Shown here: piece by piece, positions 15,820-21,144 of the stretch
Numbering within the stretch: the stretch's first letter is position 1
Layout of the letters: every line of letters begins with the position of its first letter
Translations under genes and position numbers: made by a program
Source of the DNA: Coprobacillaceae bacterium
GTDB lineage: Bacteria; Bacillota_I; Bacilli_A; Erysipelotrichales; Coprobacillaceae
DNA: 32,000 nucleotides
Direction of reading: 5' to 3'
Assembly (NCBI GenBank): GCA_963675515.1
Contig: OY776328.1
Coordinates: 660,001 to 692,000 of the forward strand
The notes under the pieces: model-generated
Seen by the model: the letters and a program-made list of their open reading frames with translations, nothing else
Told to the model about the DNA's origin: nothing
Database searches by the model: none

Positions 15820-16596
15820 GTGAAGAAGTATATATTTTTTGATATAGACGGTACGTTGACTGTCAATAAGTATGGTGATGGCGACATCACCGAGGAGACC
15901 AAAAAAACAATCAGTTCACTCCAAAAAAATGGACATTTCGTGGCGATCGCTACTGGAAGGTCTTATTCGATGGCAAAAAAATACGGTGACATGATAGGTG
16001 TCAGTAATTATGTCATAAACGGAGGCTACGGAGTGGTTATTGATGGTGAAATTGTAGATAATGAGCCATTGGACAAAATGTGTTGTATAAAAATTTGCGA
16101 AGAGGCGAAAGACAAGAGACTTGGTGTGGCGGTTGTTGTTGACGATTCGTTGAACTACCATTGCGATGACGATGTTTTCGTTATAAAATCAAAAAACAGT
16201 CTTTGTGCAATGAGTTTGAACAGACATGAAGATGTGGGTTTTTCGGATCTGGAAGAGTATCACAAAATTTACGTTTCTGTCAGCGAAGATGAAGAGCACA
16301 TGTTGGAAACACGCCACTTGATACCTTATATGAGATACACCGACTCGACAATTGTTTTCGAGGGTGCTGACAAATATTACGGTGTTGAAAAAATGATGAA
16401 GATTATTGACGGACCGATTGATCAGATAGTTGTATTTGGCGATGGAAAGAATGATTTGACCATGTTTGAGAAATCGCAGTTATCAATCGCCATGGGCGAT
16501 TCGGTTCCTGAACTTCTGGATGTCGCTGATTTCATTACAAAGAGCAGCAAGGAAGATGGAATCACGTATGCATGTAGCCTTTTCGGGTGGATTTAA
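15820..16596 (+). CDS. Cof-type HAD-IIB family hydrolase (second copy)
   Basis: FFDIDGTLT and FGDGKNDLTMF motifs, GTG start behind GGGAGGG. Confidence 0.85.
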   Translation: MKKYIFFDIDGTLTVNKYGDGDITEETKKTISSLQKNGHFVAIATGRSYSMAKKYGDMIGVSNYVINGGYGVVIDGEIVDNEPLDKMCCIKICEEAKDKRLGVAVVVDDSLNYHCDDDVFVIKSKNSLCAMSLNRHEDVGFSDLEEYHKIYVSVSEDEEHMLETRHLIPYMRYTDSTIVFEGADKYYGVEKMMKIIDGPIDQIVVFGDGKNDLTMFEKSQLSIAMGDSVPELLDVADFITKSSKEDGITYACSLFGWI

Positions 16597-16736
16597 AATA
16601 ATTGAAAACAGCAGCGAGCAATAATTATCATATTAAAACCAATCAGAATATCTTTTATAACAAATTATGTTTTTCAAGTTATTGTTTGATATGCTGTGGA
16701 ATTGTTTTATATTATAGCCAAATAATTTGAAACAAT

Positions 16737-16786
16737 AAAAACTCTTTGTGACTTACCATGAAATCGGTTAATCACAAAGAGTTTTT
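16737..16786. terminator. Bidirectional hairpin (15-bp stem, 20-nt loop)
   Basis: AAAAACTCTTTGTGA (16737-16751) pairs with TCACAAAGAGTTTTT (16772-16786). Confidence 0.4.
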
Positions 16787-17088
16787 CAATGTATGCGAAA
16801 CTTGGTCTTGTTTCATGATGGCTGATCGTTAATGATAATCAAATGTTTTGTAACTCCTATTATAAAGGGGATCTTTTCTCATTTTGGTGCTTTCAATAGT
16901 AGCTTCAAGACAGATATCCCTCTTGTGAAGTGGTGATACCTCCTTTGTCGTGGAGCTAGAACAATTTCTGATGATTTGCTCCAGCACCAAATGGGGAAAT
17001 GTGGAGCCAATCATTATAACGTTTATTCTAAGTAGGTGTTTACATGCGAGTTTGTTATTGGATTAACTCGGTAAAAAATATACAAAAA

Positions 17089-17113
17089 AACGGCTATAAT
17101 AGCCGTTGTTTTC
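17089..17113. terminator. Hairpin terminator, stronger in the minus orientation
   Basis: AACGGCT-ATAAT-AGCCGTT is flanked by A7 on the left (which reads as T7 on the minus strand) and by GTTTTC on the right. Confidence 0.5.
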
Positions 17114-17476
17114 AATATGGGGCGATATCGGTTATCGTTGGCGAACTATTTTCAATTTTCTAATCGTAATTAATGATGTGTTGATTATGAAAATCAATAT
17201 TATTTGCGTTTAGATTTTTGAAAAGTTTATAGATTATTGGATACCAGTTGGAGTAGCTAAATGGGTTCGCAACATTCAAAAGATGGCGATAAAACCAACG
17301 TTTAAAACTATCGTGGCAAGATAGTAGGGCTGAAACTTCTAAGATACACACGTTGCGACTTAGTCAGAGCAGTTATAGAAATGTCGCAGGCAAGTCAACG
17401 TATTAGCTGAAATGCAATTGCTTTGAAAAAAGTAGTGGAGAGTGCTTCTCTCGTTCAATAATCATCTTTTGTACAT

Positions 17477-17506
17477 GAATGATAATATCAAATCTTATTA
17501 TCATTC
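17477..17506. repeat. Perfect 11-bp inverted repeat separated by 8 nt
   Basis: GAATGATAATA (17477-17487) and TATTATCATTC (17496-17506). Confidence 0.6.
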
Positions 17507-17805
17507 CGTTAAAGATTAGAATGGTTTCGAATATAAAGCAATAAACATAAGATTATGTTGTATATTGGCTTTCTAATATTATTAGTCTTATATCACAGTG
17601 AATATTTCTGTGTCGCGGAGCCACCCTGTCCATTCGTTTAGAGCCACCTCTGTCGCTCTATAGAGCATGGGCACGGTGGATCTCAGCTCCTGATAAGTGG
17701 CTCTGAACTGCCGGAATGCTCATCAATATTTGTGACTAAATATTTATTGCAAAAAAACATGTGTGCGTAGTCAATTCTCTAAAAGCAACTTTATTTAAAT
17801 AAATG

Positions 17806-17834
17806 TTGCATAAGTATTTTTGGCAGAGTATAAT
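17806..17834 (+). promoter_or_regulatory. Near-consensus sigma-A promoter for the precursor-peptide gene
   Basis: TTGCAT (17806-17811), exactly 17 nt of spacer, then TATAAT (17829-17834), 26 nt upstream of the ATG. Confidence 0.6.
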
Positions 17835-17859
17835 TGTTACTTAAGGGGGAGGTGATAAC

Positions 17860-17982
17860 ATGAGTGTGAAACTATCAGTTGAAGAAATCGCTGAAATGAA
17901 TAAAGTTGATCAGCTTGATTTTTCTAAAAACGACAAAAATCTTGATGATAGTGGAATGGCAATTTCGCCAAGACTATACTAA
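17860..17982 (+). CDS. 40-aa candidate RiPP precursor peptide (not in the supplied ORF track)
   Basis: The ORF, ATG to TAA, encodes MSVKLSVEEIAEMNKVDQLDFSKNDKNLDDSGMAISPRLY. A GGAGG SD (17848-17852) sits 7 nt before the ATG. A consensus promoter lies upstream, a terminator lies just downstream, and the next gene is a radical SAM/SPASM enzyme. Confidence 0.6.
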   Translation: MSVKLSVEEIAEMNKVDQLDFSKNDKNLDDSGMAISPRLY

Positions 17983-17988
17983 AGAAAA

Positions 17989-18015
17989 AGCTCAACAATC
18001 ATGTTGAGCTTTTTT
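17989..18015 (+). terminator. Intrinsic terminator or attenuator between the precursor and maturase genes
   Basis: AGCTCAACA-ATCA-TGTTGAGCT perfect 9-bp stem followed by TTTTT. Confidence 0.65.
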
Positions 18016-18090
18016 GAATGGAATTTACTATGTTAATAGATTGAAAGGGGAGTATGCTGAGAAATATGTTTTTTCAGTTATGAATTATAT

Positions 18091-19488
18091 ATGAATTATA
18101 GATTAGATAAAAACAAATTGGATAAATTGCAACTCGGAGATAAACTACTTAGTGTCAATTTGGAAAAACTTTATATAACAGAGTATGACATTAATAGATA
18201 TTTGGTAATCAATTCTTTTAAGGATGAATGTCTCATTTTACAAAAAGATATTATAGACGATAATAAGATTCCAGCTGAAATTTGTGGTTTATTATCTACA
18301 CCAAATAAGATGAATAAAGATAGTTGGAACAGTTTTAAAAATGAGTTGGAAAATGATGCTTATGTTGAAAAAGGTAAGAAAGTAATAAATATAATTATAG
18401 CATTGACGTATGCATGTAATTTGAAATGCTCATATTGCTATCAACAATATAATCCTAAATTGAAGAAAGAAACTATATCGGTCGAAAATTTATATAAAAT
18501 TTTTGACGTCATTCGGGAATATAAAACTACCCATCCGGATAAAACAGTTGAAATTGGACTGTTCGGAGGAGAACCCCTTCTAAAAGCAAATGAAGAAATA
18601 ATTGATATGATTTTGAAATTTTGCAAAACAGAATTGATAAAGTTAAACATTGTGACAAATGGTGTGAATTTAGATTATTTTTTAAAGAAAATTATTATTA
18701 ATAGAAATGTCATTCGTTCGATAGCGACTACGATTGATAGTTCAGTTGCAAACGAGACTACAAGAAAATATATAGATGATAGAAAAAATGAAAAAAATAG
18801 TGCATCTTATATCCTTGATTGTTTAAATGTTTTATTAAGTTATAATGTTCCAGTGTCAATTTCTTCAAATATAGACGAGCTTAATATTTGTGATTTGCCA
18901 AAAATGCATAAATTATTACAGGACAACGGATTTATTGATAATGAGAAATTCTCTTGGTATATAGGCAGAGTTGATGATAGGATGTATGAAACTAAGTACC
19001 CTTTTATCATAAGTGATACAGATATCTTATTAGAGTTGGATAAACTTGAAAAGTTCGAAAACAATTGTCATGCAGCTTTTATAAAGACTGTAAAAAATTT
19101 GGTTGATAAATTGGATATGGGTTTTAATCAACAAGAGCGTAAAGGAAAATACAATTATTGTTGGACATCGTCGCCTCTTACTGATGTATTTTACATAGAT
19201 AATGACTTAGATGTATTTAGATGCACATATACCGTTGGTCGTAAAGAATTTGCAATGTATAATCTCAATGAACAAAGCATAAATGATTACAATCCAATAA
19301 ATAGAACATATTTGAATTATGAAAAGTGTCAATCTTGCAACATTGGAGGATATTGTTCAGGTGGTTGCCAATTATCTTTCAAAATGGATAGTGACAAACA
19401 ATGTGAATTTGAAATTAATGCTTTCAATGATTTTTTACATAAAATTTTGATGCCCAAATTGAGAAGTAGAGAAAACGATGTTGTCTAA
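18091..19488 (+). CDS. Radical SAM enzyme with C-terminal SPASM domain (candidate peptide maturase)
   Basis: The radical SAM cluster motif is CNLKCSYC (CX3CX2C). The SPASM motif is CQSCNIGGYCSGGC (CX2CX5CX3C), with additional Cys residues upstream (YCW...FRC) and downstream (KQCEF). About 95 aa of N-terminal extension precede the SAM motif. Confidence 0.9.
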   Translation: MNYRLDKNKLDKLQLGDKLLSVNLEKLYITEYDINRYLVINSFKDECLILQKDIIDDNKIPAEICGLLSTPNKMNKDSWNSFKNELENDAYVEKGKKVINIIIALTYACNLKCSYCYQQYNPKLKKETISVENLYKIFDVIREYKTTHPDKTVEIGLFGGEPLLKANEEIIDMILKFCKTELIKLNIVTNGVNLDYFLKKIIINRNVIRSIATTIDSSVANETTRKYIDDRKNEKNSASYILDCLNVLLSYNVPVSISSNIDELNICDLPKMHKLLQDNGFIDNEKFSWYIGRVDDRMYETKYPFIISDTDILLELDKLEKFENNCHAAFIKTVKNLVDKLDMGFNQQERKGKYNYCWTSSPLTDVFYIDNDLDVFRCTYTVGRKEFAMYNLNEQSINDYNPINRTYLNYEKCQSCNIGGYCSGGCQLSFKMDSDKQCEFEINAFNDFLHKILMPKLRSRENDVV

Positions 19489-20605
19489 AACTTTAAATAA
19501 TACAAGGATTTTATCATTAATAAGTTTATCAAATGGGTTGGTATTCTATGCACCTGTAGCACTTCTATTAAGAACATCTAAAGGAATTACACCTGCTGAA
19601 TTTTTTGCTTTACAAATTATTTTGTATGGTTCGATTTGTATTTTTGAAATACCTTGCGGAGTGATCACAGATTTGATAGGTTACAGGAAAACCATAATAT
19701 TATCAGCTTTCTTTCTATTAATCGCTAGAATAAATTTTCTTTACGCATCTACGTTTATGCTGTTTGCAATTGAGGCAATATTTGAATCCGTTTCTATCAG
19801 CTTTATTTCGGGAACAATGAGTGCTTATCTATATGAAATGTATTCTGGAGATGATTTTGACGTACACATTTCGAAAATTGACAATTTTGGTACTGCTGGT
19901 TTTGTATTTAGTACTATTGCATTCTATTTTTTGTATGCTTACTTTGGCATGTTTGGTTTAGTCTTGCCGACTGTGCTTTCGAGTTTAGGTGCTCTTATAT
20001 TTTCCGTGATGTTATCTGATGTCACTAGAAAGAGAGAATTAGATAAAAAAATATATTTTAAATTTTTTAGGAATTTCAAATTTTGGATTCTTTCATTGTA
20101 CTCAAGTGTTTTTTCACTAGGTTTTGTCGCAATTAATTATTTTTACGTGATTAAACTAAGTTCTTTTAATATTTCAACTAATAATATTACGTTCCTTATT
20201 ATCTCGTATTCCGTAATTCAAATGTTTGTACCTAAATTATTGAGTAGGATAAATAAATATAACTATTCACCTGTTATTCTTTTTGTAATTAGCTTGGCTT
20301 TCTTACTATTGTATTTTAACGAAAATATTTACTTGTCGCTCTTATTTATGGTCACATTGCCATCGCTAATCTATTTGGTCTACTACAAATTTAGTTTGGC
20401 TCAAAATAATTTTATTGATGACATGATGTGGCAAAACAATAGAGCCACACTTTTATCAATCTTTAATATGGGTAGTAACTTCTTATCGATATTCTCGTTG
20501 CTGATCCTGAGCATTTACAATAGTGCCTCAGGACTAATTACATTCGTAGTGGTTGGAATTATATATATGGTGCTTTTTTTAATTTCAATTATATATAAAA
20601 TTTAA
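19478..20605 (+). CDS. Polytopic membrane protein, MFS-like (candidate exporter or immunity protein)
   Basis: About 10-12 hydrophobic segments. GVITDLIGYRKT resembles MFS motif A between TM2 and TM3. The gene overlaps the rSAM gene by 11 nt. Confidence 0.65.
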   Translation: MLSKTLNNTRILSLISLSNGLVFYAPVALLLRTSKGITPAEFFALQIILYGSICIFEIPCGVITDLIGYRKTIILSAFFLLIARINFLYASTFMLFAIEAIFESVSISFISGTMSAYLYEMYSGDDFDVHISKIDNFGTAGFVFSTIAFYFLYAYFGMFGLVLPTVLSSLGALIFSVMLSDVTRKRELDKKIYFKFFRNFKFWILSLYSSVFSLGFVAINYFYVIKLSSFNISTNNITFLIISYSVIQMFVPKLLSRINKYNYSPVILFVISLAFLLLYFNENIYLSLLFMVTLPSLIYLVYYKFSLAQNNFIDDMMWQNNRATLLSIFNMGSNFLSIFSLLILSIYNSASGLITFVVVGIIYMVLFLISIIYKI

Positions 20606-20933
20606 AAACGAATTCATGAATCAACAAGTAATAATAAAATATACTCTTAAGGGGGTATATTAGTTCGTCAAAGATACTTAGCACAAAGATTTGTGTTATG
20701 TACAAAATATTCTTGAATGACCCTATTGTACAAGAAAATCTCTTTTGGTTGCACAAAGACGGTGCTTGATCTGAAATGTAGGAATTGTGATGAATTTTGA
20801 GCGCCTAAATTTAGACATTCACTTCCCTAAATATATTAACCTGAGATATATGAACATTGAAAAAGTGTTTAACATAGCATATATTTTAGAAATTCGATAA
20901 ATAGACAAATCGGGCTATTTATTGAATTAAAAA

Positions 20934-20960
20934 AACGGCCATCATAAGCCGTTATTTTTA
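20934..20960 (-). terminator. Terminator downstream of the tRNA-His pair (also usable from the + strand)
   Basis: AACGGC-N8-GCCGTT stem, flanked by A7 on the left (T7 on the minus strand) and by ATTTTT on the right. Confidence 0.55.
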
Positions 20961-20963
20961 ATT

Positions 20964-21040
20964 TGGGGCGACCGATGGGAATCGAACCCACGAATGCCAG
21001 AGCCACAATCTGGTGTGTTAACCACTTCACCACGATCGCC
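20964..21040 (-). tRNA. tRNA-His (anticodon GUG), copy 1
   Basis: The reverse complement folds as a cloverleaf. The acceptor stem is GCGAUCG/CGGUCGC. The anticodon stem is CCAGA/UCUGG with loop UUGUGGC. The T arm is GUGGG-UUCGAUU-CCCAU. There is an encoded G(-1) opposite C73 (a His identity element) and an encoded CCA. Confidence 0.9.
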
Positions 21041-21067
21041 ATATTAGACTTCATACAATTAATAAAA

Positions 21068-21144
21068 TGGGGCGACCGATGGGAATCGAACCCACGAATG
21101 CCAGAGCCACAATCTGGTGTGTTAACCACTTCACCACGATCGCC
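21068..21144 (-). tRNA. tRNA-His (anticodon GUG), copy 2, identical to copy 1
   Basis: The 77-nt sequence is identical to 20964-21040, with a 27-nt spacer between the copies. Confidence 0.9.

Follow-up and report, generated by a model that had tools for sequence, protein, structure and literature searches.

A putative ryptide-related radical SAM/SPASM peptide cassette with a PRLY precursor core in an Erysipelotrichaceae genome

Ryptides are, to our knowledge, known from one enzymatic study, carried out in Streptococcus suis. The rrr cluster of this organism consists of RrrA, RrrB and an MFS transporter (Caruso et al. 2019, as related in passages of PMC9389541, PMC7670169 and PMC11851443), and the three-gene composition of the ryptide operon is described likewise in PMC12445099. 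According to the passages on RrrB in PMC7670169, PMC11851443 and PMC9389541, the enzyme forms a link near the C-terminus of a 41-mer through the ortho carbon of a tyrosine, and it accepts N-terminal truncation of the substrate but not the exchange of Arg for Lys or of Tyr for Phe. The bond is given as Arg C-delta to Tyr C3 in the parts of PMC7670169 and PMC11851443 that deal with it, and as Arg C-gamma instead in the corresponding part of PMC9389541, a review from the discovering laboratory in which the RrrA ring is stated to be 16-membered. The mature ryptide products and their functions are listed as uncharacterised (PMC13361665).

The cassette and its precursor gene

The window (the whole stretch of DNA that was analysed, 32,000 nucleotides) contains a three-gene cassette on the plus strand, consisting of a precursor peptide gene (17860-17982), a gene for a radical SAM/SPASM peptide maturase (18091-19488) and a gene for an MFS transporter (19478-20605), all three ORFs being of full length. 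This order, with an overlap of the enzyme and transporter genes, is also found in the rrr loci of S. suis and Staphylococcus pseudintermedius, and in the window this overlap, at the maturase stop, amounts to 11 nt. From the HAD hydrolase gene, which ends at 16596, to the tRNA-His pair beyond the cassette, no protease, second tailoring enzyme or regulator is encoded. The transporter (375 aa, Pfam MFS_1) is presumed to export the product. BLASTP and four profile iterations did not connect it with the transporter of the S. suis rrr cluster, the two having only the MFS_1 assignment in common, and it belongs to a subfamily that is shared by the Faecalibacterium and Lachnospiraceae loci described below, where it also lies directly downstream of the enzyme.

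The initial annotation, made from the sequence of the window, had read 17860-17982 as a leader-plus-core precursor for the adjacent radical SAM/SPASM enzyme, with an acidic leader, no Cys, Trp or His and F21 and Y40 as the only aromatic residues. Translation of the window returned exactly this ORF, 40 aa and a stop, with the sequence MSVKLSVEEIAEMNKVDQLDFSKNDKNLDDSGMAISPRLY, from which the stated composition and both aromatic positions can be read directly; residues 1-32 hold eight Asp/Glu against four Lys, and chemistries that depend on Cys or Trp are, as had been proposed, ruled out by composition. The leader takes up approximately residues 1-21 and carries the motif LSVEEIAEMNKVD, and the core, S-P-R-L-Y, ends in P37-R38-L39-Y40, with R38 as the sole Arg of the peptide.

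The gene is already called on a public contig of 2.88 Mb and is equipped with recognisable expression signals. A candidate sigma-70-type promoter (17806-17834), identified by eye, combines TTGCAT (17806-17811), a 17-nt spacer and a perfect TATAAT -10 box (17829-17834), and we infer that it serves the peptide gene; its -35 hexamer matches at only three of six positions, and it was not listed by the program scan. It is followed by a Shine-Dalgarno sequence, AAGGGGGAGGTG (17843-17854), whose GGAGG core stands 7 nt upstream of the ATG. Directly after the stop codon, and so ahead of the enzyme gene, lies an intrinsic-terminator-like hairpin (17985-18015, with the GC stem and T6 at 17990-18015) that has the stem GCTCAACA/TGTTGAGC, the loop ATCA and a subsequent TTTTTT. 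An equivalent hairpin occupies the same position in two orthologous loci (L081 and L083), in a Faecalibacterium locus (L017) and in a Lachnobacterium locus (L003), whereas the Streptococcus and Staphylococcus loci have no hairpin and a peptide-enzyme gap of only 15-19 nt. The hairpin is probably an attenuator that sets a high ratio of peptide to enzyme. Rfam scans of the upstream and intergenic region returned nothing but a ylbH-leader match at the terminator, which with 24.5 bits falls short of the gathering score of 50 and was taken as chance.

The ATG of the maturase gene (18091) has no Shine-Dalgarno sequence within 15 nt. Ahead of it, an SD-like sequence, AAAGGGGAG (18044-18052), is followed by a mini-ORF of 9 codons (18054-18083, MLRNMFFQL*) with its stop codon 7 nt from the start of the maturase gene, an arrangement which suggests translational coupling or re-initiation. 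The maturase genes of the orthologous loci L081 and L083 have ordinary Shine-Dalgarno sequences.

In a search of the 446 small ORFs of the window with a profile built solely from RRY-type precursors of other genera, 17860-17982 ranked first with E=0.001, its residues 1-21 being covered by the match, and with the runner-up at E=1.5 it was the only significant match. The peptide has no match in NCBIfam or Pfam, even at E<=10. Together with the expression signals, the public gene call and the synonymous codon changes described below, the profile match indicates that 17860-17982 is more than a chance ORF, and the peptide is very probably the substrate of the adjoining radical SAM enzyme, as the initial annotation had it.

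The maturase and the family of precursors

The maturase (465 aa) has the radical SAM motif C109-x3-C113-x2-C116 and seven SPASM cysteines (C357, C378, C413-x2-C416-x5-C422-x3-C426 and C438). Across 26 homologues the radical SAM and seven-Cys SPASM motifs are invariant or nearly so, and every residue that is invariant in these homologues is present in the window enzyme. Its Pfam matches are Radical_SAM and Fer4_12, and its top NCBIfam family is NF040899, "radical SAM/SPASM ryptide class RiPP maturase" (E=4e-117, 391.7 bits), to which it aligns from end to end (enzyme residues 1-461, model 1-459), while the second-best family scores 84 bits. The equivalog cut-off of NF040899 is 600 bits, so that the enzyme is homologous to the ryptide maturases but, by the NCBI threshold, no equivalog of them. 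On the same model, S. suis RrrB (P0054) scores 958 bits and the S. pseudintermedius enzyme 946 bits, whereas relatives approximately 60% identical to the window enzyme (P0002, 412 bits) stay under 600 bits like it, as does a Lachnospiraceae homologue (P0008, 388 bits). Identity between the window enzyme and S. suis RrrB is 39% over 99% of the length.

An AlphaFold2 model of the enzyme, computed from the 26-sequence alignment, reached a pLDDT of 87 and a pTM of 0.85. Its fold matches are full-length RRE-rSAM-SPASM RiPP maturases, headed by CteB (E 8e-15) and peptide-bound SuiB (E 5e-11), and on this model the approximately 95 N-terminal residues are predicted to form a leader-binding, RRE-like domain. 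There is no solved structure of a close relative in the PDB, where the best sequence match is CteB (E=7e-16).

Small ORFs were read beside approximately 30 homologous enzymes, in loci from genomes, metagenomes and exact-match contigs, and nearly all of these loci encode a precursor of 34-45 residues with a shared leader motif, roughly M-x-x-x-[F/L]-[S/T]-x-E-E-[L/I]-x-x-M-x-x-x-D, and a C-terminal R-[R/L]-Y. The leader of the window peptide is homologous to those of RrrA and the other RRY-type precursors. The precursors end in TRRRY or IRRRY in Streptococcus, Staphylococcus and Amygdalobacter, in NHRRY in Lachnobacterium, in THRRY in Butyrivibrio, in TNRRY in Fusobacterium, in ARRY, PRRY or GHRRY in other Clostridia, and in GHRLY in Faecalibacterium. 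In the nearest relatives of the window locus, with enzymes approximately 60% identical and one genome labelled Erysipelotrichaceae, the ending is EHPRLY or DHPRLY; these closest orthologues ending in HPRLY comprise four distinct sequences, and a profile search of a large protein collection added one further HPRLY sequence and many variants.

In an alignment of 14 precursors that spans Streptococcus, Staphylococcus, Amygdalobacter, Lachnospiraceae, Faecalibacterium and Fusobacterium, only the columns of M1, E9, D17, R38 and Y40 are invariant. Among 97 distinct precursor sequences, R-[R/L]-Y stands at or near the C-terminus in 72, and in these, counted back from the Tyr, R, H, P, N, A or S is found at -3, while -1 is occupied by R in 51 sequences and by L in 21. 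In the other 25 the similarity to relatives breaks off abruptly, which suggests contig ends, chimeras or frameshifts, and none of them has a point substitution at the Arg or the Tyr alone. The initial annotation had named variable or absent C-termini in orthologues as the observation that would count against a modified SPRLY end, and the outcome, with R-x-Y retained, is in its favour. The codons for P-R-L-Y vary synonymously among the PRLY and HRLY sequences (CCA/CCG, AGA/AGG/CGC, CTA/CTT/CTC), which indicates that selection acts on the protein sequence of the core. Six distinct family members carry 3-6 follower residues after the Tyr, with the cores HRRYSTVR, HRRYSVAQ, SRRYVTTL, HRRYGIVM, NRRYSVTALS and HRRYSVTALS.

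In a neighbour-joining tree of the enzymes, the PRLY clade lies beside ARRY and PRRY enzymes and the Faecalibacterium HRLY enzyme lies among HRRY enzymes. With the two groups separately nested among RRY lineages, Leu at -1 arose on two or more occasions, which makes a spectator role of -1 likely. In the enzymes, the column of A444 (about 19420-19422) holds Ala or Val in both independent RLY lineages and Glu, Asp, Ser, Asn, Gln or Tyr in 16 of 17 RRY-type enzymes, the remaining one having a gap; A444, in one of two such columns out of approximately 465, could be a contact for the -1 side chain.

Several individual loci deserve mention. The Faecalibacterium precursor, MYTVTFSNEELEEMKANDAVVIVSCDDDNGHRLY (34 aa), is identical in L017, L019 and 59 metagenome loci (e.g., L102-L164), that is, in 61 fetched loci from Faecalibacterium genomes and many human-gut metagenome contigs, and the maturase beside it is 37% identical to the window enzyme. 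In L082 (1-1064), an orthologue at approximately 60% identity, the precursor (ending GLADHPRLY*) stops approximately 1 kb upstream of the maturase gene, compared with the usual 80-110 nt or so, and AT-rich, ORF-free DNA separates the two. L001 (CAXXSL010000001.1, 1-7491) was considered as an exception to R-x-Y and rejected: its 410 aligned bases around the peptide gene equal those of the window except in homopolymer lengths, a change of AAG to AAGG shifts the frame so that the peptide ends in SPRTILKEKAQQSC, and the orthologues back the window reading. The enzyme gene of L001 is called in fragments, as in an error-prone long-read assembly, and the title of this public MAG contig, "Anaerohalosphaeraceae bacterium", looks doubtful, as the window proteins otherwise cluster with those of Erysipelotrichaceae. 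More distant are L030-L033 (Collinsella, Treponemataceae and Faecalibacterium), with enzymes 24-30% identical and 45-residue precursors that have a different leader and end in EQDLIPIRY, the Arg standing directly beside the terminal Tyr; these may be a separate Arg/Tyr-directed family.

Predicted chemistry and rival explanations

On the comparisons above, the cassette, with its peptide, radical SAM/SPASM and MFS genes, probably belongs to a divergent lineage that is sister to the RrrA/RrrB ryptides within their RiPP family. In the core of the precursors, one Arg and one Tyr are held constant while the rest is free to vary, which is the pattern that an Arg-Tyr link predicts, and an RrrB-type carbon-carbon crosslink between Arg38 and Tyr40 is the likely outcome of the maturase reaction. 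The initial annotation had offered an RrrB-type, an MftC-type and a YydG-type reaction and had held that sequence could not choose among them. Comparison across homologous loci, however, allows a choice: the precursor role and the Arg-Tyr option of the annotation are both favoured, the latter by a ryptide maturase model as top family, an RrrA-like leader and invariant R38 and Y40, while the other two options fared poorly, as set out at the end of this section.

By homology and published RrrB work, from which all of the following steps are drawn, the peptide gene would be transcribed from its own promoter, with most transcripts stopping at the hairpin and read-through supplying the enzyme and exporter. 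Leader residues 5-17 or so (L-S-x-E-E-I-x-E-M-x-x-x-D) would dock on the N-terminal RRE-like domain of the maturase, and the [4Fe-4S] cluster held by C109, C113 and C116 would cleave SAM to give a 5'-deoxyadenosyl radical that takes a hydrogen from the Arg38 side chain (from C-delta in RrrB). The resulting carbon radical would attack Tyr40 at C3, its ortho carbon, an electron would pass to the auxiliary clusters of the SPASM domain, and rearomatisation would yield an Arg-Leu-Tyr cyclophane with a mass change of -2 Da. The leader would then be cut off by a protease encoded outside the cassette, and the MFS transporter would release the product.

The size of the ring can be considered by counting atoms. 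A link between Arg(i) and Tyr(i+2) gives a 14-membered ring through C-delta and a 13-membered ring through C-gamma, and a 16-membered ring needs Arg(i) and Tyr(i+3) joined through C-gamma. Three residues before its Tyr the window peptide has Pro and no Arg, and in most of the relatives outside the streptococci this place is taken by His, Asn, Ala, Ser or Pro. Either RrrA, too, reacts through the Arg at -2, in which case the ring size quoted for it does not hold, or the ring of the window branch is smaller. A smaller, three-residue Arg-x-Tyr cyclophane in the PRLY, HRLY and xRRY branch, differing from the four-residue, 16-membered ring given for S. suis RrrA, is a possibility that we put forward tentatively and hold somewhat less probable than its opposite. 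If it is true, the minimal ryptide motif is R-x-Y and not RRR-Y, and the unannotated branch, including very common human-gut Faecalibacterium strains, makes up a distinct product class.

Of the alternatives, the one that survives best keeps the enzyme-substrate pair and lets the enzyme carry out a reaction other than that of RrrB on the R-L-Y end. It might attack another carbon of the Arg, form an ether (C-O) bond with the oxygen of the Tyr, join Tyr40 to Leu39 or to Pro37, or epimerise a residue. The distance from RrrB, at 39% identity and under the equivalog cut-off, leaves room for this, since RaS-RiPP subfamilies at similar distances have repeatedly proved to carry out different reactions (PMC9389541), and the residue at -1 has changed from Arg to Leu with co-variation of the A444 column of the enzyme. 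On the other side, conservation of the core across the family is confined to Arg(-2) and Tyr(0) while -1 and -3 vary freely, a pattern that a Leu- or Pro-based link or an epimerisation would not yield, and the occurrence of RLY in two separate enzyme lineages nested among RRY points to -1 as a spectator. We regard a different reaction as unlikely on balance.

The genomic setting bears on a further alternative, that of a cassette which is no longer functional. The cassette is a low-GC island (28.7% GC, against 43.3% in the rest of the window) that adjoins the 3' side of two tandem tRNA-His(gtg) genes (20964-21143, minus strand), and in L081 the orthologous cassette lies beside integrase-like and Arm-DNA-binding genes, which are upstream of it; horizontal acquisition is likely. 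Two similar terminator hairpins contain an imperfect 18-nt repeat, AAAAAAACGGCTATAATA (17084-17101) and AAAAAAACGGCCATCATA (20929-20946), and these repeats may be the boundaries of an insertion.

L081 (3769-4719) and L083 (3798-4724) encode, immediately ahead of the precursor gene, a TPR/RNPP_C regulator of 308-316 aa (RNPP_C 27.8 bits), a quorum-sensing-type arrangement that is parallel to, and not homologous with, streptococcal Rgg. When the window was searched by tblastn for these regulators, with the L081 protein and the Rgg proteins of S. suis and S. pseudintermedius as queries, there was no Rgg/RRNPP regulator at E<=1 apart from one chance-level match of the L081 query (E 0.57). The 1.26 kb from the HAD hydrolase gene to the peptide gene (16597-17859) contain no ORF of more than 77 codons and no remnant of an RRNPP regulator that tblastn could detect.

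Decay of a horizontally acquired island into an inactive remnant, with loss of the regulator and of product formation, would account for this missing regulator, for the ORF-free upstream DNA, for the lack of a Shine-Dalgarno sequence near the maturase start and for the low GC content. Against decay, the three ORFs are full length, the enzyme has all of the residues that are invariant in 26 homologues, and the peptide gene retains its perfect -10 box, strong Shine-Dalgarno sequence and terminator, and we consider an inactive cassette distinctly improbable.

Within the AT-rich, ORF-free DNA upstream of the peptide promoter lies a GC-rich stretch of approximately 130 nt (17590-17720), for which the predicted folding is, on either strand, a little more stable than that of shuffled controls (z -2.3 and -2.6) and for which Rfam has no matching family.

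The MftC-type option of the initial annotation, oxidative decarboxylation of the C-terminal Tyr and its crosslinking to the penultimate residue as in mycofactocin, has in its favour that Tyr is the last residue of the window peptide and that the enzyme is of the rSAM/SPASM type, two features that the locus shares with MftA/MftC. There is, however, no specific sequence relationship: neither MftC nor PqqE is found in the top 25 NCBIfam families of the enzyme, where all models but that of the ryptide maturases score 84 bits or less, and MftB, MftD, MftE and MftF genes are absent from the cassette and its vicinity. The penultimate residue is Leu or Arg in the family, with Leu-Tyr in the window peptide, and not the Val of MftA, and the six members in which the Tyr is internal, followed by further residues, argue that a free Tyr carboxylate is no requirement of the family, which makes this reading very improbable. 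The YydF/YydG-type epimerase finds no support, as YydG is not among the 25 best NCBIfam families, EpeE is only at rank 50 of the fold matches, and epimerisation would leave the invariant Arg...Tyr pair unexplained.

Comparison with known systems

Outside the ryptides, the nearest reactions are those of the triceptide maturases (XyeB, YhhB, FxsB), which form cyclophanes on three-residue motifs, and of StrB/SuiB (streptide, Lys-Trp), rSAM/SPASM enzymes that form C-C links from an aliphatic side-chain carbon to an aromatic ring at a distance of a few residues (PMC10114670). The RRE-rSAM-SPASM architecture is common to all of these and the window enzyme. The triceptide maturases are only weakly related to it (YhhB 42 bits, FxsB 45 bits), and in triceptides the aromatic residue comes first (aromatic-X-X), whereas in the window peptide the aliphatic donor would precede the aromatic residue.

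More similar to the window are the HRLY and HRRY clusters of Faecalibacterium, Lachnobacterium, Butyrivibrio and other Clostridia, with the same MFS subfamily, the hairpin and a C-terminal R-[R/L]-Y. They differ from it in having enzymes 37-45% identical to that of the window, precursors of 34-36 aa and His instead of Pro at -3. We found no source that names these clostridial clusters, and a literature search returned no paper that connects the PRLY/HRLY cluster type with Faecalibacterium or Erysipelotrichaceae. The enzyme family reaches well beyond the Rgg/SHP-controlled streptococci, to Erysipelotrichaceae, Lachnospiraceae, Fusobacterium and, abundantly, gut Faecalibacterium. Comparison across these loci narrows the substrate requirement to the leader motif and R-x-Y, the latter giving a concrete prediction of which Arg reacts, and it offers natural core variants (PRLY, HRLY, HRRY, RRRY and the follower-bearing cores) for work on substrate scope and ring size.

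With the S. suis ryptides, the window locus shares a maturase with homology from end to end (39% identity; NF040899 score of 392 bits), a homologous leader motif in a precursor of approximately 40 aa with Arg-x-Tyr as its last residues, the order of genes and the overlap between those for the enzyme and the transporter, and the lack of an encoded protease. An Arg and a Tyr for the R-Y crosslink are available in R38 and Y40. The differences begin with the NCBI equivalog cut-offs, under which both the enzyme and the peptide fall. The model NF041055 (ryptide_RrrA, cut-off 45 bits) gave no match at E<=10 for the window, HPRLY or HRLY peptides and 83.6 bits for a Streptococcus RRRY peptide in the same search, and it took a wider profile to detect the leader homology of the window peptide; in the protein collection, the name "ryptide family R-Y-crosslinked RiPP peptide" is likewise borne by RRRY-type peptides only. 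The "RRR" before the C-terminal Tyr, on which the name of the ryptide subfamily is based, is absent, as the core is SPRLY and not TRRRY, with one Arg instead of three, Pro at -3 and Leu at -1, and the ring may span the three residues R-L-Y instead of being the reported 16-membered one.

In organisation, a hairpin separates the A and B genes that stand 15-19 nt apart in streptococci, the MFS transporter is of a different subfamily, and there is no shp/rgg at the window, adjacent shp/rgg being what defines the RaS-RiPP network of streptococci. The locus also lies in an Erysipelotrichaceae genome and not in Streptococcus or Staphylococcus. The locus thus is a divergent, unannotated branch, ending in PRLY and not in RRRY, of a known RiPP class, and it would extend known chemistry without introducing a new principle.
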